From NCBI GenBank assembly GCA_963806185.1, contig CAWDXE010000005.1, positions 96,001 through 160,000 on the forward strand: a stretch of 64,000 nucleotides of DNA. The letters run 5' to 3'. The first letter of the stretch is position 1. Each line of letters starts with the position of its first letter. Below the pieces are notes generated by a model. The model searched no databases. It was not told the origin of the DNA and saw only the letters and a program-made list of their open reading frames with translations. Shown one piece after another: positions 3,642-46,680 of the stretch. This DNA is from an uncultured candidate division Zixibacteria bacterium (GTDB taxonomy: Bacteria > Zixibacteria > MSB-5A5 > GN15 > FEB-12). A program made the position numbers and the translations under genes.

Positions 3642-4733
3642 TTGTCACAGTTAGACAATGTAGAGCAGATACGAGGGCTGGATCCGGATAACATGTACAA
3701 CCGGGTGTTCGATTTCCCGGAGCAGTTGGCGGAGGCAGTAGCGCTGGGGGAGAAATTCCAGTTCGACCGGTTGGCGTTTGCCGACGTGAAGAATATTGTG
3801 GTGATCGGCATGGGCGGATCGGCGATCGGCGGTGACCTGGCGCGATCGCTGCTGGGCAAAACGTTGGTGGCGCCATTCCAGGTGTGCCGCAACTATGAGC
3901 TGCCTGAGTATGTCGACGATGAATCGCTGGTGATTGCCTCGTCGTACAGCGGCAACACCGAGGAAACGCTGGCGGCGCTGGAGGATGCGATTGGGCGGAA
4001 GTCGATGATCATGGCGATGACGACCGGCGGCATCATGGAGGAAGTGTGCGGCGTGAATGGCATTCCGGTGCTGAAATTGCCGGGTGGTTTGCAGCCGCGC
4101 GCGGCGCTGGGGTATTCGTTTGCTCCGCTGATCGTCTTTTTCGAGCGGATCGGGCTAATCAAAGGGTATGTCAAGCAATTGGGCGATACAATTGCGCATC
4201 TCAAGACGCAGCGGGATTCGTACATCGAGGATTCGCCGGTGGCGCAGAACCGGGCGAAGAACCTGGCGACGATCATTCGCGGCCGGATGCCGATCATCTA
4301 CGGCGGACCGTCGCTGACCGACGTGGTGGCGGTGCGGTGGAAAGGCCAAATGTGCGAGAATGCAAAGAACATGGCGTTTGCCAACGTGTACGCCGAGTTC
4401 AATCATAATGAGCTGGTGGGGTGGTCGGATACGATCGCGCCGCACAAGGACAACCTGATCGTCATCCAGCTTCGGGACAAGGACGATCACCCGAAAATTG
4501 TCAAGCGGATGGACATCGTGAAGGGGATCATCGGGAAGCAGAATGTACCGGTGATCGACGTCCAGTCGACGGGCAACACGCCGCTGGATCGGATGTTCAG
4601 CCTGGTGCAGTTGGGTGATTTTGCGTCGTATTACCTCGCGATTTTGAATAATGTCGATCCGACGCCGGTCGAGGCGATCGAGACGCTGAAAAAGTCGCTG
4701 GCGAAAGGTGGTAGACGCCGATCGGCAGTGTAG
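3642..4733 (+). CDS. Bifunctional phosphoglucose/phosphomannose isomerase (SIS domain)
   Basis: GMGGSAIGG, SYSGNTEET, QPRAALGY, EFNHNE motifs. Confidence 0.92.
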   Translation: MSQLDNVEQIRGLDPDNMYNRVFDFPEQLAEAVALGEKFQFDRLAFADVKNIVVIGMGGSAIGGDLARSLLGKTLVAPFQVCRNYELPEYVDDESLVIASSYSGNTEETLAALEDAIGRKSMIMAMTTGGIMEEVCGVNGIPVLKLPGGLQPRAALGYSFAPLIVFFERIGLIKGYVKQLGDTIAHLKTQRDSYIEDSPVAQNRAKNLATIIRGRMPIIYGGPSLTDVVAVRWKGQMCENAKNMAFANVYAEFNHNELVGWSDTIAPHKDNLIVIQLRDKDDHPKIVKRMDIVKGIIGKQNVPVIDVQSTGNTPLDRMFSLVQLGDFASYYLAILNNVDPTPVEAIETLKKSLAKGGRRRSAV

Positions 4734-4960
4734 GGCAAACCCCATCGTCCATTCTTCAAGGGGTTTGCCTCTTTCTTCCTATTTGACGAGAGATGGCGGA
4801 CCCCTACCAGACCTCCTGCCCTTCATGGCGGACCCCTACCACCAGACCTCCTGCCCTTCATGGCGGACCCCTTGATAGATGGAAAATGGGGTCCGCCCTA
4901 CGTGCTCTCCCACGATACATGGCAAACCCCTCGTCAAATGGAAGATGGGGGTTGCCCTAC
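4730..4960. repeat. Cluster of GTAG-type REP-like palindromes (family A, three copies) with an internal 32/35-bp tandem duplication
   Basis: GTAGGGCAAACCCC...GGGGTTTGCC at 4730-4769; inverted copies ending GCCCTAC at 4862-4901 and 4921-4960; tandem units at 4793-4824 and 4825-4859. Confidence 0.85.
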
Positions 4961-4985
4961 ATCTGACTACATGTCGCACTCTGCG

Positions 4986-12784: not shown

Positions 12785-13290
12785 GTGAGGTCAGACGCCG
12801 CGAGGGCGCAGACCAGGACCTCACGCAACGTGTGAATGGCGTCGGGCTTCGACTTCGCTCAAGTCGACGGTAAGATCATCGAGGAGGAGGCGCGCGGTCG
12901 AGCATGTGGTGGACGAATGCAGATTTGAGGTTGCTTCGTCCCCTTCGGCTCCGCTCAGGGTCCTCGCAATGAGGATAATACAGAACAGACGCTCTCGCAC
13001 CCACCCTCACCCCAGCCCAAAGGGAGAGGGTGAAGAGAAGAGCGTCAGGTCACACGCCGCGAGAGCGCAGCGCAGGGCCTGACGGAACGGGTGAATGGCG
13101 GGATAAGGGCCCCATGGATTCCGGACCGTTGGTCCGGAATGACAATAGTGGCTACGCTTCTGAGATCAGCGAATTGGGAGATCATTTTGCGAGATTAGAA
13201 GGGCAAACCCCTTGTTAAATGGAAAATGGGGTTTGCCCTACGCCTGCTGAGATGCTGAAGCCGCTAAGAGGCGACTTCAGCATGACGAGT
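12785..13290. repeat. Mosaic cluster of several REP-like palindrome families between convergent genes
   Basis: GAGGTTGCTTCGTC...CTCGCAATGA (12927-12972), CCCTCACCC...GGGAGAGGG (13004-13031), GTCAGG...CCTGAC (13045-13083), GGATTCCGGACC..GGTCCGGAATGAC (13116-13144), family A (13201-13241); all recur elsewhere in the window. Confidence 0.85.
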
Positions 13291-23102: not shown

Positions 23103-23906
23103 TTACGGCTGAGCGACGACGTGAACCGAGTCACGGGCGAGCACGCGGACAGCGCCAAGGTGGCCGGATACTTTGGTCTTGGCGATATCGTCGGCCAATT
23201 GCGAAGGCAGCGGCACCGGCAAGGCAGTGCGGCTGAGCAGAGAGTCCGGCGCGCCAGTGAGAGCGTAGACATAGACGTAATACCAGCCGGTATCCGGGAG
23301 AACGCCACCGGTCGGATAGAACGCGTCTCGTTGTACGGTCGCCGCGGTGGCACCGTTGGTGGCATACTGACTAAAGCCGTGGCCGGTATATCGGTTCGCC
23401 CGTTGGACTGCAGACACGACGTAGGCCTCGGCGTAAAGTGCACCGGACCAATCGAGAATAACATCCTCGGCGCCGTTCACGGTCCTGTTCGGCGGAGTGA
23501 TGTTCGTGAGCGTGTACGTCCCCGGCATGACGACGATCTCCGAATCGGCGAGAATGTCGGCATCGGCGAAGACAAACTGGAAGTTGCCTGCGCCGTAGCG
23601 ACTGGCGACGGTGAACATCCGGCCATAGACGGAATCGCTGGTGAAAGGCGTGGGAATGTACGCCAGGGTATCGAGGCCGAGTTTGGCCTTGGCGGTTTTC
23701 AGGACGACGTTGTCCTTGGCGATGGTGGTCAGGACGATGGTGGTATCCCGGTTGGGATCAATAACCGTAACGCCTTTCAGCTTGTAACGGCCGGTGATTG
23801 AACCGCCGCCGTCATCCTTATTCGGGTAGGAATTGCACCCGGCAAAGAGGGCAATGATGGCCGCGGCCAGAAAAATGAAGATATTTTGAGTATGCTTGCA
23901 GTTCAT
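23103..23906 (-). CDS. Hypothetical lipoprotein
   Basis: MNCKHTQNIFIFLAAAIIALFAGC lipobox; beta-rich mature domain. Confidence 0.8.
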   Translation of the reverse strand: MNCKHTQNIFIFLAAAIIALFAGCNSYPNKDDGGGSITGRYKLKGVTVIDPNRDTTIVLTTIAKDNVVLKTAKAKLGLDTLAYIPTPFTSDSVYGRMFTVASRYGAGNFQFVFADADILADSEIVVMPGTYTLTNITPPNRTVNGAEDVILDWSGALYAEAYVVSAVQRANRYTGHGFSQYATNGATAATVQRDAFYPTGGVLPDTGWYYVYVYALTGAPDSLLSRTALPVPLPSQLADDIAKTKVSGHLGAVRVLARDSVHVVAQP

Positions 23907-24187
23907 TGAAATTCGTCGCCTTACCTTGAGATATCGGCAACTATTATACAAAATTCACCGCTAGTTCGATGACCGGGTGAATTGGTGGAACGGCTTGCGG
24001 CATGGGCGATTGGCTGGCGGGAGCCGGTAGGACGGCAGCGGTTGGGTGGGGGGGCGCGGAGAACTAATTCGGTCTATGCTTAGATTCTTGTTGTGTAGTT
24101 CAGCAGTTAGCGATAGACTGGCCGGTGTCCGATCAACCGCCGGAGGCGGTTGACACCCCGACGACAAGAATTTGGTATAATACATGT

Positions 24188-24283
24188 AGTTTGGCGGCCA
24201 GATAGTTGTAGCCATATGACTTCTGCGCCGCTTTTGAGCCCCGTACCGACTCCCTCCCCCCCGGTGCGGGGTCTCTTTTTTTT
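24188..24283 (+). ncRNA. Candidate small RNA, copy 1 (two hairpins, C-rich terminator loop)
   Basis: Extended -10 TGGTATAAT at 24173-24181 (TTGACA at 24150-24155); hairpin 1; terminator stem with loop ACTCCCTCCCC and T8 tail; 88 bp identical to 25783-25870. Confidence 0.65.
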
Positions 24284-24320
24284 CCTGCCGGGGCAGGCCG
24301 GGAGGCCTGCCGCCCACAAG

Positions 24321-25595
24321 TCATTTGATCAGGAGCATTTTGCGGCAATCGGCATAGCCGCCGGCTGAGAGTCGGTAGAAATATATGCCGCTCGGGGAAG
24401 TGCGGCCGGCGTTATCGGTCCCGTCCCATGCGACGACATATTTGCCGGCGGATCGAGCATCGTCAACCAGAGTGCGGACACTCTGGCCGAGGAGATTGAA
24501 TATCTCCAGAGTGACGCTCGATCGCTCTGGAATATCGAATTCGATCGTCGTGGACGGGTTGAACGGGTTCGGATAGTTCTGTCCGAGCCGAAAGTGATCG
24601 GGTAAGGAGTGATCGTTGTCGTTTACGCTGGTGGGGTTCAGATCGGCATACCAAAGACCATCGGAGCGTGCGGAATAGAGACGCCCGCCGAGGACGGCAA
24701 GGTCAAAGGGGAAGGGGCCGGGAACGGAGTCGATGACTTCCCAACCGTTACCGGTTGAGGTGTAGTAATACGCTCCATAGATGACAAAGAAGATAGAGGC
24801 GTAGACGCGATCCTGATCGGCGGCGACCGAACCGTTGGCGATCAGGTGCGGAGTGACCTCATCGCGCTCCCAGGTCGCACCGGAATCGTGACTGATGTAG
24901 AGCCCGTTGCCGGCGGCGCCATACACGAGGCCATTCCGGCTCGTCATATCCAGCATGCCGGCTCCGCGAGGATCGAAGGCCGAGAAAGGGAATTCGGTCC
25001 AACCGGTCGAATTCGGGGCATTCCGAAAGATCGAACTGTTGAAGCCTGCTCCGGATATCAGGTAGTTGTCGTGGTTATAGACCGACAGAATGTTGGAAGC
25101 CGTGTTATCGGGCATGCCATCTCTGAAACTATGCCAGACAGAGCTTCCGCCGAGGTCCATGACAGATATGCCGGCGCCGAAGGTGCCAACATAAAGGCTG
25201 TCGCCACGGTTGGTCAAATCACCTATGTCATTCGAGCCAAGGCCGGTCAGACCGGTATTGCAGGGACCCCAGGAAAGGCCGTTATCGTCCGACTCAAACA
25301 CTCCCTTGGTGTACGTGCCGGCGAAGAGGCGGTCACCTACCTTGATGATGCCGGATAGCAGGTTTACCTCGGGATCAAGGGCGGCTAGCGTATCCCAATT
25401 ATTCTCTTGTCGGTCAAAGCGATAGAGCAGACCGCCGGAGGCGGAATAGAGGGTGTCGTGGTACGTGTAAAGATGGGTAGTTTCGCCGGTCGGAACCTCG
25501 GTAACCTGATGCCAGGTCAGGGCTGCACGACTGCGGGTAGCCAGAACCGTGACCAGGCCGAGCGAAATGATTAAGAGAAGGGTTGTCTTTTTCAT
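24321..25595 (-). CDS. Secreted beta-propeller/BNR-repeat protein with FlgD-Ig / T9SS-like C-terminal sorting domain
   Basis: Signal peptide; SDDNGLSW and SHDSGATW Asp-boxes; LGQNYPNPFNPSTTIEF...WDGTD...SGIYFYRL...KMLLIK. Confidence 0.88.
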   Translation of the reverse strand: MKKTTLLLIISLGLVTVLATRSRAALTWHQVTEVPTGETTHLYTYHDTLYSASGGLLYRFDRQENNWDTLAALDPEVNLLSGIIKVGDRLFAGTYTKGVFESDDNGLSWGPCNTGLTGLGSNDIGDLTNRGDSLYVGTFGAGISVMDLGGSSVWHSFRDGMPDNTASNILSVYNHDNYLISGAGFNSSIFRNAPNSTGWTEFPFSAFDPRGAGMLDMTSRNGLVYGAAGNGLYISHDSGATWERDEVTPHLIANGSVAADQDRVYASIFFVIYGAYYYTSTGNGWEVIDSVPGPFPFDLAVLGGRLYSARSDGLWYADLNPTSVNDNDHSLPDHFRLGQNYPNPFNPSTTIEFDIPERSSVTLEIFNLLGQSVRTLVDDARSAGKYVVAWDGTDNAGRTSPSGIYFYRLSAGGYADCRKMLLIK

Positions 25596-25776
25596 AGAGG
25601 AGTAAACGGATCAATGTTAGATATGTTCCACGAGATACGTAGTTTGGCGGAAAGATGTTCCTGTGCGCGGCAGGTTTCATATTTGGCAGGAGCGCAAGGC
25701 TGCGGCCCTACAGCCTATCCCCTGCCGGGGCAGGCCGGGAGGCCTGCCACCCACATTGATTTGGTATAATATACGT

Positions 25777-25870
25777 AAGTTGGGCGGCCAGATAGTTGTA
25801 GCCATATGACTTCTGCGCCGCTTTTGAGCCCCGTACCGACTCCCTCCCCCCCGGTGCGGGGTCTCTTTTT
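25777..25870 (+). ncRNA. Candidate small RNA, copy 2
   Basis: TGGTATAAT at 25762-25770 followed by the same 88-bp two-hairpin unit and a T5 tail. Confidence 0.65.
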
Positions 25871-25940: not shown

Positions 25941-27002
25941 CTAGCGGCCACGCGTCGTCGAGTCGCCTGGGTCAGCATACGGCGGGGTGGATGTGATGCC
26001 GAATCTCTCCAGCAGTTTATGCGACGGTCGGTTGACGCGCGCCCGGTAGACGTTGGGTTTGTCGGTCGCGGTCAATCTCCCCCGGGTGATGGCGCGCAGC
26101 CGCTGGAACTGTGCCGAGTCAGCTACTTCGGCCAGGATTTCGTAGGTCGTTGTGTCCTTGACCTGCCCGGCTTGCTGGCTGCGGGCGATCGCACCCCACT
26201 CCTCCATCGTGTGCGCCTCTGCCGGGTGGAAGTCGTACTCGCCTTTGTAGCGTACGTACCACTGGTTGTCCGCGGAGAAGTTCTCCAGCCGCTGGGTGCA
26301 CGGCTTTTGCTCCAGTTCCCGCATGCGCGCAAGGTCCAGTTCTGCCTGGGTGGCTTTGCGCGTGCGCGCCCAGCCGCCGCTGGGCAGCCGGTGGTACCCT
26401 TCGCGCTCGTAGGCCGCCGCTAGCGATTCGGCCGAGTCGGCAGCACGCTGAGCCTGCTGGGCGGCCCGGATGCTGTCAGACGTCAAGTTTAAGATGGAAT
26501 CGCCCGCCGGCGGCTGCGCCGAAAGTCGCGCCGCCAACTCATCGCGCGCCACTATGCGTATGTCGTAAGCCAGCGACCGAAAGGCACCGGCCTCCGGCAC
26601 AAACGAGTGGATGTTGCAGTCGTCGCGGTCGCCAAAATTGAAGCAGTAGGTCAACCCGCACGTGTCGCCCGGCGGGAGAATGACCTGCAGCTCGTGGGTA
26701 TAGGTCTCGCGCGCATCGAACGTCTCCTGCCAAGTCGCCTCCCCGACGAACTGCAACCCGCCCCACGGCTCAAAGCGCACCGTGAACGACGGAACCTTCG
26801 TATACTTGTTGCGCGTCAAGGTCAGCACCACCGGTACCGGCTGACCCGCCGGCACCAACTCTGCCACGGTGAACTTGTAATCCACCTGGAAGAGCCTTCT
26901 CGGCGGACTGGACTGCACGGACCCGCAAATCAGCAGAAGTACGATAGAAAACATGACATTCAAGAAGATCAATCGTTTCGACGAAGAGTGGGGCGTCGCC
27001 AT
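25941..27002 (-). CDS. Hypothetical secreted protein
   Basis: Long ORF with N-terminal hydrophobic segment (FSIVLLLICGSVQS); start uncertain. Confidence 0.65.
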   Translation of the reverse strand: MATPHSSSKRLIFLNVMFSIVLLLICGSVQSSPPRRLFQVDYKFTVAELVPAGQPVPVVLTLTRNKYTKVPSFTVRFEPWGGLQFVGEATWQETFDARETYTHELQVILPPGDTCGLTYCFNFGDRDDCNIHSFVPEAGAFRSLAYDIRIVARDELAARLSAQPPAGDSILNLTSDSIRAAQQAQRAADSAESLAAAYEREGYHRLPSGGWARTRKATQAELDLARMRELEQKPCTQRLENFSADNQWYVRYKGEYDFHPAEAHTMEEWGAIARSQQAGQVKDTTTYEILAEVADSAQFQRLRAITRGRLTATDKPNVYRARVNRPSHKLLERFGITSTPPYADPGDSTTRGR

Positions 27003-27272: not shown

Positions 27273-28672
27273 CTAGAATTTGGCCCAGCGCGGGACGCGC
27301 GGGAACGGGAGTACGTCGCGAATATTCCCCATACCAGTGATGTACATGATGGCGCGTTCGAAACCGAGGCCGAACCCGGAATGCGGCACCGTGCCGTAGC
27401 GGCGACTATCCAGATACCACCAGTAGGCAGAGAGATTGGTGATCCCCTTTTTCGTCATGCGATTTTCGAGAACGTCGAGCCGTTCTTCGCGCTGTGATCC
27501 GCCGATGATCTCGCCGATCTTGGGCACGAGTACGTCCATAGCCCGAACGGTCTTGCCGTCGTCGTTGAGCCGCATGTAGAACGCTTTGATCTCTTCGGGG
27601 TAGTCGTAGACGATGACCGGCTTCTTGAAGGCTTTTTCGGTGAGAAATCGTTCGTGCTCCGACTGCATATCAACTCCCCACTTGACCGGGATATTCGAAC
27701 TTCTCCCCTGACTTCTCGAGAATCTTTATCGCATCCGTATAAGAGAGGCGCTCGAATTTTGCGCCGGCGACACCCTCGAGTGTAGCACGGACGGACTTGT
27801 CGACCCATTCGCCGAAGAAGTCCATTTCGTCTTTGCATTCGGTCAGGGCGAAAGTGAAGATGTTCTTGAGGAAGTCCTCGGCCAAATCCATGTTGTCATC
27901 GTTTTCGGCCCAGGCCATTTCCGGCTCAACCATCCAGAATTCGGAGGCATGGCGGCTGGTGTTGGAGTTTTCGGCGCGGAAGGTGGGGCCAAACGTGTAG
28001 ATGTCACCCAGCGCGGTGGCCAGCAGCTCTCCCTCGAGCTGGCCGGAGACGGTGAGAAAGGCCTCGGCTTCAAAGAAGTCCTGTTCCCAGTCCGGGTGGC
28101 CCTCTTTGAGCGGCAGGTTGGTCAACGGAAGCGTGGTGACGCGGAACATGTCGCCGGCGCCTTCGGCATCGGAGGCCGAGATGATCGGCGTGTGGACGTA
28201 GAAGAAACCGCGTTCCTGATAGTAGCGGTGAACGGCGTACGACAATTTGGAGCGTATCCGATTCACGGCGCCGAAGGTGTTGGTGCGGGGTCGAAGATGG
28301 GCGATCTCGCGCAGGAATTCCATGGTGTGGCGTTTTTTTTGCAGCGGATAGCTGGCGTCGGCGACGCCGACCAGGTCGATCGTGGCGACGGCGATTTCGT
28401 ATTTCTGGCCCTGCCCCTGGGACGGAATCAGCTTACCGATGAGGCGAACTAGAGGCACCGGTGAGGATTTCGTTGAGGACGGGGAAATTCTCCGGATTGG
28501 CGACGACGCCCTGAATGTTCTTCATGCAGGAACCGTCGTTGACCTCTATGAAGGCGATCCCCTTCGAGATGCGGACGGTCCGCACCCAGCCGAGGATAAT
28601 AACGTCAGTGTCGACCGGCACGCGGTCGTGTACGAGAATGGCGGCGATCTTGGTTCGTTGCTTGTAGTTCAT
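27273..28672 (-). CDS. asnS: Asparagine--tRNA ligase (two +1 frameshifts, near 28451 and 27688)
   Basis: Three consecutive frames give [15 protein letters not shown] / [39 protein letters not shown] / [24 protein letters not shown]. Confidence 0.93.
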
Positions 28673-32324: not shown

Positions 32325-32350
32325 GGAACTTCTGAACGCACCGGTTTGTT
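32325..32350 (+). promoter_or_regulatory. ECF (SigH/SigR-like) autoregulatory promoter
   Basis: GGAACT-17nt-GTT upstream of the ECF sigma gene. Confidence 0.6.
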
Positions 32351-32407
32351 TATGTAAACGGACCGCAGTGATGTTCAGGCGTCGGAACGTAAGGAGATTA
32401 GGTGCTG

Positions 32408-32998
32408 ATGCCTGACCTAAAAAAGCAGGATATCAACGGTAAGCGGAAGGGCTTCGAGCGCGAGGCGCTCCCGCATATGGATGCGCTGTATCGGACAGCT
32501 CTGCGGATGACGAAGAACGAGAATGACGCGGAGGATTTGGTACAGGAAACGTTTGTTAAGGCGTACCGCTTCTGGGACAAGTTCGAACAGGGTTCGAATT
32601 GTCGCGCCTGGCTGTTCAAGATTATGACCAACATATTCATAAACGATTACCGGTCAAAGTCACGGACGCCGGTATCGGTGAATGTTGACGATATTGATGA
32701 CAACTACTTGTATGGTCAGTTGGCAAGCCAGGGGCCGGAAGACAATCCGGAACGTCAGTTGTTCGCGAAGATATTCGACGACGACGTGAAAAAGGCGATC
32801 GAGGAACTTCCGGATGATTTTCGACTGGTGGTAGTGCTGTCGTTTCTAGAAGGATTTTCGTATCAGGAGATTGCGGATATTGCCGACCTTCAGTTAGGGA
32901 CGGTCAAGTCCCGACTTCATCGAGGACGTAAGTTGCTGCAGAAGCAGCTTTACGAATATGCGACCAGAAACGGGTTTATTAAGGACACCGCTAAATGA
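32408..32998 (+). CDS. ECF RNA polymerase sigma factor (SigH/RpoE-like)
   Basis: DAEDLVQETF, RAWLFKIMTN, FSYQEIA, GTVKSRLHRGR. Confidence 0.95.
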   Translation: MPDLKKQDINGKRKGFEREALPHMDALYRTALRMTKNENDAEDLVQETFVKAYRFWDKFEQGSNCRAWLFKIMTNIFINDYRSKSRTPVSVNVDDIDDNYLYGQLASQGPEDNPERQLFAKIFDDDVKKAIEELPDDFRLVVVLSFLEGFSYQEIADIADLQLGTVKSRLHRGRKLLQKQLYEYATRNGFIKDTAK

Positions 32999-33792
32999 AC
33001 TGTCAGGATGCACTCAGTCTGCTGTATGAGATAATAGACAAGGAGGCGTCCGAGATCGATGTGGCTCAAGTGAAAGAGCACCTGGAGCAATGCAAGCATT
33101 GCTTTGAGGTATACAAGGTCGAGGGCGCGGTACAGGAATTCATTCTCGAGAAGATCAGGTTACACGAATCGACGGTTCGAGCGGAGTCGCTCAAGCTGAA
33201 GCTGGTGGCGCAGCTCGACACGATCGACACGGAGTGCAAGAAGGAGCAGCGAAAGCTCCCTTTCGGTAGGCTCACGCTGCTGCTGGCGGCTGCAGCGTCA
33301 TTGGTAATCGTCGTCGGCGCCGCACTCTTCGGCGCCAGCCTGTATCGTCACCACAACGTCTACATGCCGTTGGAGCAGGCGCACTGGGACGCGAGTGAAG
33401 CTCTCAATAAGTCATCAGATGTAACTCTGGCCTCGACCGCGGTGAGCCAGGTCATGAGTAATTGGCAGTATGCCGTACCGCAGACGCTGGGTGTTTTTTC
33501 GCTGGCGGGCGGCCGAGTAGAGCAGATCAGCGGTGTAGCAATGGGGCATTTCGTCTACCGCTCGGGAGCGGAGGTGGTGTCGGTGTTTGTCGCGCCGGCC
33601 AATCAGTTCCGGATACCCGATGATGTGCAGGAGAATGTTACCGTAGTCAACGGCGTTCAGTTCTTCGATCACAATTGCCGGGGCTGCCGGCTGGTATATC
33701 ATCAGGAGGGGAAGGTGGTGGTGATTTCGGCGTCGGTCGATCACACGCTCGATTTGACCCAATTTGCGACAATGAGCCGCGGGGCAATCTGA
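32995..33792 (+). CDS. Zinc-binding (zf-HC2/ZAS) transmembrane anti-sigma factor
   Basis: ATGA overlap; MNC...HLEQCKHC; single TM; periplasmic domain containing CRGC. Confidence 0.9.
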   Translation: MNCQDALSLLYEIIDKEASEIDVAQVKEHLEQCKHCFEVYKVEGAVQEFILEKIRLHESTVRAESLKLKLVAQLDTIDTECKKEQRKLPFGRLTLLLAAAASLVIVVGAALFGASLYRHHNVYMPLEQAHWDASEALNKSSDVTLASTAVSQVMSNWQYAVPQTLGVFSLAGGRVEQISGVAMGHFVYRSGAEVVSVFVAPANQFRIPDDVQENVTVVNGVQFFDHNCRGCRLVYHQEGKVVVISASVDHTLDLTQFATMSRGAI

Positions 33793-41850: not shown

Positions 41851-42231
41851 GTGGGGGGCTAGCGCCGGCGGTTCAGGGAAAGTTCGAGTCGGAGGTTTCG
41901 GGCAAATGACGGAATGGGGCCTCATGGATTCCGGACCTTCGGTCCGGAATGACAATGAGGTAGAATTCGCGGAGCATTGAAGGGCATGTCCGCTTTTTGC
42001 ACATGATACGCAGGGAAACGGGTATGAGGAGTGCAGGGCGAGGAAAATCCTGAGCGTGAGTTTGCATACATTTGATTGCCCAGGCCGGTTCCCGGCTTCA
42101 CCATTGTTTGCCTTCAAGTCCGACTATGAGAACTTTGAATCTCCCCTTCCGATTACAGCGACGCAAGTTACGAAGCCAGACTGGTGCATGGTTACAGCGC
42201 TCTTCGTCGGAGATGTCGAGGGCGACTGATG

Positions 42232-42245
42232 GGCACGGTCTTTGC
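42232..42245 (+). promoter_or_regulatory. Putative sigma54 promoter
   Basis: GGCACGGTCTTTGC (GG-N10-GC), about 105 bp upstream of the 42350 ORF. Confidence 0.55.
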
Positions 42246-42349
42246 GCTAACCCCGATCACGAGGAATAGCCAAGCGGCGGCCACCGAGGCCGGATTGGCG
42301 AGCAAGATTTGAACAGTTCTCGAACGCGGGAAGAAAGAGAGTAGGTAAC

Positions 42350-42628
42350 ATGTCGGTCAATGATTATGTCGTCTGCGATGGCTGCGGAAAGATTATCACG
42401 CGCCCTGAAGACGGGTTCATGATCAAGGGGAACATCTGGGCGGCCGACCCAGGCGAGAATCGCGCGCTGTTGGTCGGGAATAACTACCCGGAGACTCGCA
42501 ATTTTGCCGTGACGCTTGCCGAGATCGGCGAATCGCATCTGTGCACGAATTGTATGGTACGGCATCTGGGGTTGGGCCAGGAATTCATGACGACTCATGT
42601 CGACAAGCGGTTGGCGCGTTCGGCGTGA
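42350..42628 (+). CDS. Small hypothetical protein with two CxxC motifs (putative zinc ribbon)
   Basis: VCDGCGK ... HLCTNCM; purine-rich RBS region. Confidence 0.7.
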   Translation: MSVNDYVVCDGCGKIITRPEDGFMIKGNIWAADPGENRALLVGNNYPETRNFAVTLAEIGESHLCTNCMVRHLGLGQEFMTTHVDKRLARSA

Positions 42629-42717
42629 CGGACACAGACATCTATTAGAGCATACGATAGAGCAACGCAACGGCGGGTGATGAGCCCGCCGTTGGTGTTT
42701 GTGGGGGGGGATTTGTC

Positions 42718-42960
42718 GCCCTTCGACTGCGCTCGAGGCGGCGAGATATGGGAATGATCGCATAAGAAGATAAATGATTGGGGCTGGTTGAAGGATTTCC
42801 CCACCTGGATTCCCGCATTCGCGGGAATGACAAACAAGGGGGGAATGACAAACAGGGCGGGAATGACATTCATGGCCGGCGTACGTCTCGTGCGCCAGCA
42901 GGCGTGAAGAGAGAGGTTGCTTCGTCCCCTTCGGCTCCGCTCAGGGTCCTCGCAATGAGT
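42718..42960. repeat. REP-like cluster including an 18-bp tandem triplication
   Basis: GGATTCCCGCATTCGCGGGAATGAC (about 42807-42831); GGGAATGACA at 42823, 42841, 42859; 42913-42958 matches 12927-12972. Confidence 0.85.
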
Positions 42961-42985
42961 ATTGTGAGGCACGCATGTGATTCTG

Positions 42986-45964: not shown

Positions 45965-46680
45965 CACTCGCCTACGGGCCCTCACCCCGGCTCTCTCCCG
46001 GGGGGAGGGAGTAAGAATAGCGTGTGAAGCCTTACAGTCAGGCTCGCAGGGAGCCTGACCTTTCCGGACACGCGCTAATGCCATGCCCTACCGGCCCTCA
46101 CCCCAGCCCTGTAGGGCTAACCCCATTGTCCATTTATCAAGGCGTTTGCCATATTCTCTTCTCGACTTTACGCTTGGCGGACCCCTTGATGAATTGAAAA
46201 TGGGGTCCGCCCTACTCGTTCTACTACCGGCCCTCACCTCAGCCCTCTCCCAGAGGGAGAAGGAGAAAAAGCAGCACGTGAGGTTGAGAGTATTTGCGCA
46301 AGACGGAATGAGGGCCCCATGGATTCCGGACCGGGTGTCCGGAATGACAATGATGCAAGGGTTCTTCACTCTGAGATTCCGGACCTTCGGTCCGGAATGA
46401 CAATGCAAGAAGCATGTTTTGGGTCGGCTGGCGCACGAGACGTACGCCAGCCACAGGATTTAAATGAAAGGTGCGGTCAGGCACGAAGGCCTGACCGCAC
46501 ACGTATTCGGTCTCGTCTGCGCCCGACCCGGCGGAGTGCGGCGATGAGAGATTATTGTGCGAAATGAAAAGGGCAAACCCCTTGTTAAATAGAAAATGGG
46601 GTTTGCCCTACGCCTGCTGTCAGGCTCGCAGGGAGCCTGACCTACTGTCTATCTTCAGGGGCGCAAGGCCCCTGACCTAC
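45965..46680. repeat. Large mosaic REP-like cluster downstream of glmS
   Basis: Family A at 46111-46150, about 46176-46214 and 46571-46611; GGATTCCGGACC..GTCCGGAATGAC at 46321 and 46375; GTCAGGCTCGCAGGGAGCCTGACC at 46037 and 46619; CCCTCACC..GGGAG at 45979 and 46230. Confidence 0.88.

Follow-up and report, generated by a model that had tools for sequence, protein, structure and literature searches.

The duplicated locus

The window analysed here, by which we mean the whole 64,000-nucleotide stretch of contig CAWDXE010000005.1 (positions 96,001 to 160,000; assembly GCA_963806185.1) from an uncultured candidate division Zixibacteria bacterium, carries on its plus strand two copies of a compact two-hairpin unit, set among a lipoprotein-like gene, a gene for a predicted secreted protein and a tRNA synthetase gene of the asnS type (Table 1). 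The original prediction, made from the sequence of the window alone, had taken this unit for an undescribed small RNA (sRNA) of about 95 nt with a C-rich loop in its terminator. The family-wide model matches, the covariation and the absence of an Rfam family reported below bear this out: the unit stands for a previously undescribed sRNA family whose C-rich loop is invariant and which belongs to a well-known class of regulators.

Positions 24193-24280 and 25783-25870 are fully identical over 88 bp, and the identity reaches 112 nt at 96% when counted from the -10 element onward. Each copy lies downstream of TGGTATAAT, which starts at 24173 and 25762, occurs at no other place in the window and is found 13 times in the genome, counting both strands; the predicted coordinates of this twin repeat were re-derived exactly. 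A third copy was not found in the source genome (3.6 Mb, 82% complete) by blastn, nhmmer or a covariance model, the next match to the latter scoring 21 bits and lacking the C-rich loop. A recent duplication, which took in the -10 element along with the sRNA gene, is likely. Both copies had been described as antisense to the local genes; they do lie on the opposite strand, but without overlap, and the divergent genes begin about 280 bp (lipoprotein-like) and about 180 bp (a protein with a FlgD-Ig/Por-type C-terminus) from the copies.

On the plus strand the unit forms a pair of hairpins (z = -7.6 and -7.3, with none of 200 shuffles equally stable), and the minus strand of copy 1 gave z = -3.6. 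The two-hairpin fold with its C-rich terminator loop stands as first proposed, except for the length of the loop, which has 13 unpaired nt, two C more than had been written. The U-run comprises eight residues in copy 1 and five in copy 2, and pairing probabilities were close to 0 or 1, so that no alternative fold was found in the unit. A tRNA-like or Y-RNA-like fold was set aside for want of a T-loop. When the source genome was scanned more loosely for terminators with C-rich loops, seven rows at five places were returned, two of them the window copies and three weaker folds; such terminators are no common feature of the genome.

Table 1. Features of the window at and around the two sRNA copies (positions within the window).
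Feature	Position	Strand	Remarks
Divergent lipoprotein-like neighbour	23103..23906	-	No Pfam/NCBIfam family; 36 homologues beside family members
Copy 1 upstream element	24150..24156	+	TTGACA overlapping GACAC; one base off the relatives' ECF (extracytoplasmic function) -35 GAAAC, at the same position
Copy 1 extended -10 TGGTATAAT	24173..24181	+	GTA aligns with the ECF -10 (GTT/GTA) of the relatives
sRNA copy 1, ~96 nt	24188..24283	+	Putative +1 near 24188; 63 bits with covariance model R1, which had this copy among its source units
Hairpin 1	24193..24232	+	Covariation in the outer GGCG/CGCC stem; interior differs between units and is reduced to a stub in some genera
Terminator hairpin and U-run	24236..24283	+	Stem 24236-24275; unpaired C-rich loop 24249-24261, predicted pairing seed
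REP-like (repetitive extragenic palindrome) element, 35 bp	24284..24318	.	Direct repeat with 25721-25755; 5 genome matches of at least 20 nt
424-aa predicted secreted protein	24321..25595	-	FlgD_ig/Por_Secre_tail C-terminus; lineage-specific; located between the two sRNA copies
ECF-type motif TGGAAC-N17-GTT	25605..25630	-	Precedes the 424-aa gene by 35 nt
Second REP-like palindrome copy	25721..25755	.	Occupies the -35 region of copy 2
Copy 2 extended -10 TGGTATAAT	25762..25770	+	No -35 element
sRNA copy 2, ~93 nt	25778..25870	+	Loop 25839-25851
asnS-type class II tRNA synthetase gene	27273..28672	-	Convergent neighbour, 48 homologues in 101 loci; three reading frames here
SigH/SigR-like ECF sigma (32408-32998) and zinc-finger anti-sigma (32995-33792)	32325..33792	+	Own GGAAC-N-GTT motif

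Distribution of the RNA

A blastn search of 61 genomes detected the terminator half in several relatives. A strict sequence pattern was then matched in 49 of 107 other genomes of the same Zixiibacteriota family, in none of 52 genomes from three sister families, and not at all in a reversed control. Over the GTDB collection the same pattern returned 42 stretches, 36 of which were titled Candidatus Zixiibacteriota or bore unnamed or metagenome-assembled genome labels, and the two-hairpin unit was present in all but one or two of these 36. The six matches in unrelated genera lacked hairpin 1, scored 18-35 bits and were treated as chance.

Of the 108 family genomes, 93 were matched by the covariance model R1, built from 33 units, when the threshold was E<=0.05, and 89 when it was E<=1e-4. 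At the stricter threshold two to four copies were present in 20 of the 89 genomes, seven of them with tight tandem arrays, and a single copy in 69, which partly supports the proposal of a multicopy sibling sRNA. Outside the family the best matches reached about 33 bits, with 10 of 52 genomes of the order matching at E<=0.05, and matches in a sample of the phylum were weak (32.7 bits in G198 and 32 bits in G182). A search of metagenomes for close relatives of the window's hairpin 1 gave 0 matches. Judged by these sequence matches, the RNA is a family-level trait among the genomes searched.

In the sister family f3, 3 of 14 genomes (L147, L148, L149) have, behind an alanine tRNA whose anticodon was read by eye as GGC, a terminator whose loop is of the CCCCTCCCC type. 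A similar loop is seen at L153 and L157, there in a 3' untranslated region terminator. These terminators are possibly equivalents of the sRNA derived from a tRNA trailer or an untranslated region.

Conservation and covariation

Once duplicates and weak non-family rows had been removed, 117 units were left. Among these, CCCUCCCC and CCCTCCCC were each kept in 111, the loop was open in all 117 and a U-run was present in 114, and a second motif, GAGCA(C/T), was found in hairpin 1 of 40. Changes on both sides of a pair were seen at 9 of 18 pairs in a MAFFT alignment. In the alignment of 111 distinct rows made with the model (A2), which was fitted to the model's structure and so leans towards it, 16 of 18 pairs changed on both sides and 95% of cells were paired, against 37-52% paired in slid controls and 0 of 500 shuffles, a statistic which the kinship of the genomes overstates. 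The stems of both hairpins covary, and the frequent changes from G-C to G-U fit the plus strand as the RNA. An anti-AUG second seed in hairpin 1 was also considered and dropped, inspection showing no conservation.

Predicted promoters of the sRNA genes

The predicted promoter usual in the family escaped the original prediction. It is an ECF-type motif, (G/T)GAAAC or GGAAC followed after 17-18 nt by GTT or GTA, and is found in 72 of 117 units, against 4.9 +/- 2.1 in shuffles. As the pattern had been derived from these same 117 units, it was retested on new metagenome units, where it was present in 15 of 19 held-out cases, against 0.8 +/- 0.9 when shuffled, two of the four misses being near-duplicates. 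A promoter not conserved among the copies was to have refuted the original prediction; the outcome is another one, in that the extended -10 is particular to this genome, with a TATAAT or TGn-10 pattern in 7 of 117 units, and the promoter usual in the family is of the ECF type. The motif of the Zixibacteria family has the form of ECF promoters such as those of Corynebacterium SigH/SigE, which are described as GGAAC-N18-19-GTT (PMC10012870).

By type of -35, the sRNA promoters comprise 45 with GAAAC, 18 with GGAAC and 9 others, so that the cognate sigma factor may differ between copies. Two ECF genes found across the family carry the same pattern upstream, both with GGAAC: the SigH-like gene of this window in 30 of 30 orthologues and an RpoE-like gene in 25 of 25.

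The motif was present in 68 of 96 units at the core locus and in 4 of 21 dispersed units, all these counts being from kin, which are not independent. Among the 17 of 21 dispersed copies without the ECF motif (dispersed copies include L074, L093, L177, L181, L194 and L196-L198), 13 have TTGAC upstream, and several dispersed copies adjoin PAS-domain signalling genes. The four-copy arrays at L038:8408 and L080:3142 have GCCGAT(A/T)A upstream of the first copy, which we take to resemble a sigma-28 -10 element.

The window promoters were aligned by position, on the loop, with those of 28 relatives of the same length class. Copy 1 has GACAC in place of GAAAC, 18 bases upstream of GTA, and this change creates the TTGACA at 24150, whose distance of 20 nt to TATAAT is beyond the canonical -35 spacing of sigma-70. 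In copy 2 the -35 region has been replaced by the REP-like palindrome. The bipartite motif, present in most units of the family, is found in neither window copy, and a comparison of these sequences suggests that the ECF promoter had likely already drifted into an extended -10 of the sigma-70 type when the duplication took place.

Relation to known RNA families

No family of Rfam 15, with RsaE, 6C, cuckoo/ar14 and LhrC covered so far as they are modelled there, was matched at its gathering threshold by the window unit, nor, by E-value, by the unit in the window stretch and 20 homologue loci, in agreement with the expectation that no known family would cover it. The only match above a gathering score in the window, to HIV-1 SL4 (20 nt, 32 bits, 12984-13003, minus strand), is almost certainly chance.

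Two families come close. The unit scored 24.7, 22.2 and 28.1 bits against ErsA (Pseudomon-1, RF01719), where the cut-off is 50, and the alignment shows a shared terminator with a CCCCG stem and a CCCUCCCC loop. ErsA is reported as an sRNA of the ECF sigma-22 envelope-stress circuit (PMC13613067); in contrast to the Zixibacteria unit, it is described there as having a more extended single-stranded 5' part and one or more Hfq-dependent targets, and it belongs to another phylum. Such Hfq-assisted regulation is not supported here, no Hfq having been found in the 41 genomes searched; the same search recovered control rings in 5 of 14. The atoC motif (RF01733) shares with the unit a -10-like element, a hairpin and a terminator with a CCCUCC loop, but is presented as deltaproteobacterial and cis-regulatory (PMC2864571). 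It scored 30.4 bits at the best locus against a cut-off of 50, and none of 41 genomes exceeded the cut-off, the best there reaching 26.5; its position 5' of a same-strand gene also differs from the convergent arrangement that predominates in the Zixibacteria loci. ErsA and atoC share an architecture with the unit and not a membership.

Other C-rich-loop sRNAs are alike in outline. LhrC1-5 of Listeria monocytogenes are described as multicopy and stress-induced, with two stem-loops and a CU-rich terminator loop acting on the Shine-Dalgarno sequence of targets, Hfq being dispensable, but they have three redundant UCCC sites and are driven by LisRK (PMC4132741), whereas the Zixibacteria unit has one invariant loop and an ECF-type promoter. 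RepG of Helicobacter pylori, to which there is no sequence family match, is reported to target a phase-variable G-repeat in one leader (PMC8295292), and a conserved target of this kind was not found in our start-site scans. GsrN of Caulobacter likewise combines a promoter for ECF sigma-T with a C-rich loop by which it pairs to mRNA rich in G, but this loop lies at the 5' end of an RNA that is processed and stabilised by Hfq (PMC5869019), and the actinobacterial 6C RNA, whose C-rich loops pair without chaperones, has more than one of them (PMC6486639); the unit matched neither GsrN nor 6C in Rfam. With the trans-acting sRNAs of this class the unit has in common a stand-alone intergenic position, a promoter motif and an intrinsic terminator, these being motifs rather than measured activities, together with a conserved unpaired C-rich motif within a covarying structure. 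In the open-access literature searched, the supplements of the 26- and 50-genome motif surveys (PMC8632094, PMC11109978) excepted, we found no description of a Zixibacteria sRNA.

Pairing, targets and chaperones

We consider it probable, though well short of certain, that this two-hairpin RNA of about 95 nt represses mRNAs through its loop, free of Hfq and ProQ, and from an ECF promoter in most relatives. An ECF stress sigma factor would transcribe the RNA gene in most relatives, the C-rich terminator loop would pair with G-rich ribosome-binding sites without either chaperone, and the covered sites would impose a translational block on the mRNAs concerned; in the genome of the window, the change from the ECF promoter to a sigma-70-type extended -10 would have uncoupled the RNA from the stress sigma. 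Transcription, stress induction, the choice of sigma, the pairing of loop and mRNA and the translational block are all steps that we infer, and base-pairing of the loop to ribosome-binding sites is suggested by analogy with the RNAs above.

ProQ, like Hfq, was not found (0 of 5 genomes). The loop is similar to the 16S tail identified in the source genome. In G000, with start sites taken from our own simple gene calls, loop matches of at least 7 nt fell in 79 start-site windows, against 17 and 17 control windows, and duplexes of -16 kcal/mol or lower in 61 start-site windows, against 21 and 32 controls, of 3039.

Several points weigh against the proposed mechanism. The 2-4 fold enrichment of the loop complement at G000 start sites would be expected of any Shine-Dalgarno-like word, and a perfect 8-nt complement before ATG was found 98 times in 10 genomes, against 85 control matches. 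No orthologous start site was shared among 30 candidate ORFs (open reading frames) drawn from 60 of these matches, and no conserved target emerged from the start-site, 10-genome and orthologous-group scans. As to the promoter, the strict ECF motif is missing in 45 of 117 units, both window copies among them, and the 45 GAAAC motifs differ from the GGAAC of both autoregulated sigmas. Autoregulation is described as frequent among ECF sigmas (PMC7776599), and the ECF sigma adjacent to the sRNA was not supported as an autoregulated reader of the motif, which lies upstream of its gene in only 1 of 30 cases. The lean of alignment A2 and the kinship of the genomes, given above, belong here too.

Of 11 orthologous groups that could be compared at the loci, only that of a PDZ-domain gene in the RpoE-like operon showed G-rich upstream windows (median -12.0 kcal/mol, 15 sequences); its site may sit upstream of the gene's own promoter and is therefore not called a target.

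An invariant loop for which a conserved mRNA target was not found would also suit a stress-induced RNA whose loop is bound by Rho or by a KH-domain protein of the KhpA kind, or soaks up a regulatory RNA rich in G. Genes for CsrA and for KhpA-type proteins were found in each of the 5 genomes searched, the 40 units mentioned retain GAGCA(C/T) in hairpin 1, and a G-rich tract in RsaI is reported to bind C-rich sRNAs (PMC8383071). We nevertheless think this unlikely: the C/U-rich terminator loops of RepG (PMC8295292) and LhrC (PMC4132741) are described as mRNA pairing sites, and no loop of the window unit contains GGA, the site expected for CsrA.

The locus across the family

The surroundings of the RNA were compared at 101 loci, with ORFs called mechanically. 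Upstream, the closest ORF runs divergently in 83 of 99 cases; downstream, the closest one is convergent in 72 of 98 and shares the strand in 26. A fixed chromosomal locus, in which a lipoprotein or ECF operon is followed by the RNA and asnS, accounts for 96 of 117 units; from the RNA to asnS, gene content is free to differ from genome to genome. The recurrent neighbours are asnS (48 proteins), the lipoprotein-like gene (36) and the ECF gene (33), and for 47 of 117 units the nearest upstream gene encodes an ECF sigma paired with a soluble anti-sigma of the zinc-finger type.

This ECF sigma and its soluble 85-aa zinc-finger anti-sigma (G000 C6:32270-33140; L114, L034, L032) lie back-to-back with the sRNA in about one third of loci, and an MMPL transporter follows the pair in relatives. 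The sRNA-adjacent ECF gene has TGAATC/TGCATC about 30 nt before its ATG in 30 of 30 sequences shown, usually with a -10-like box and with no Shine-Dalgarno sequence; from these sequences, its message is probably leaderless.

A strong terminator facing asnS at a fixed spot could be a cis element, whether a promoter-proximal attenuator, a 5' leader or a terminator that insulates convergent units from each other, and Rfam's filing of the look-alike atoC motif as cis-regulatory and the 26 same-strand downstream ORFs lean the same way. The prevalence of convergent downstream ORFs makes this improbable, as do the tandem arrays of two to four units, most with their own promoter motif, the lack of an alternative fold, and an invariant loop that would be superfluous for a plain terminator.

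That the RNA is part of a mobile cassette, as had been offered as an alternative at the outset, or a miniature inverted-repeat transposable element or REP-type repeat carried with secreted-protein genes, was suggested by the recent 88-bp identity, the 35-bp direct repeat round the intervening gene and the high variability of the genes directly downstream of the RNA. This is now largely refuted and very improbable. There are two copies only in the genome, and the family has one locus, inherited vertically, in the 96 units at the fixed site. No plasmid match for the unit was found and no true viral match, the lone pattern match on a viral contig lacking hairpin 1 and scoring 17 bits, and no integrase or transposase was present among the 16 window and 18 neighbour-cluster proteins scanned. 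The divergent and convergent flanks, with no plasmid or viral match, therefore argue against both a 5' leader and a mobile cassette. A type I antitoxin, or a minus-strand small-peptide mRNA behind the G-run, is hardly credible either in spite of the strong Shine-Dalgarno-like G-run on that strand and the multicopy arrangement, since only 7 of 117 units have a start codon 4-14 nt past the G-run, which upholds the earlier statement that no ORF is conserved, the first minus-strand ATG is spread evenly over the frames (38/35/35), and the G-U substitutions and U-run favour the plus strand.

Other features of the window

The 424-aa gene between the copies is flanked by the 35-bp palindrome as a direct repeat, and only the C-terminal sorting-type domain of its product has relatives in the source genome and the compared loci. 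Between copy 2 and asnS lies an orphan ORF (25941-26885, minus strand) with a GC content of 64%, against 56% for the genome, for which neither a paralogue in the genome nor a match in the compared loci was found. The division of asnS into three frames is probably due to assembly indels, and homopolymer lengths in this genome therefore need caution. Clustered short palindromic REP-like repeats of several families occur at 4730-4972, 12927-13256, 41909-42962 and 46037-46680.

The SigH/SigR-like sigma encoded further along the window, outside the RNA gene, is a candidate for reading sRNA promoters of the GGAAC type. Its best NCBIfam match, TIGR02947, is under the cut-off, and its RsrA-like zinc-finger anti-sigma carries a hydrophobic segment and a C-terminal domain. 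Among 71 hits of a related motif in G000, 18 of which were hand-picked for Pfam analysis, GGAAC..GTT sites precede genes for thioredoxin, two superoxide dismutases, ferritin, Fe-S proteins and an Rrf2 regulator, and in the same subset TGAAAC-type sites precede envelope genes. From these sites, Zixibacteria likely have a thiol/oxidative-stress regulon.

Implications

Returning to repression of mRNAs through the terminator loop, the combination of a stress promoter with a C-rich terminator loop is also seen in ErsA, LhrC and RepG, which come from unrelated phyla, and the Zixibacteria RNA is, by this analogy, likely another case of convergence. A bolder version, to which we give only a slim chance, is a general anti-Shine-Dalgarno brake: under ECF stress the loop would compete with the 16S tail at all strong G-rich sites, leaderless messages such as that of the neighbouring ECF sigma would be spared, and duplicate copies would repeatedly have been rewired to other inputs, here by a one-base change from ECF to sigma-70. 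If true, this would amount to a global switch of translation that needs no chaperone, in a phylum for which no sRNA was found in the literature searched.

With the family described here, a phylum without Hfq or ProQ in the genomes searched gains a well-defined, family-wide regulatory RNA. This RNA has the look of the repressive branch of an ECF-governed stress response, and the window would be a snapshot of its rewiring, in which a fresh duplication is seen together with an ECF promoter that has become a sigma-70-like extended -10.

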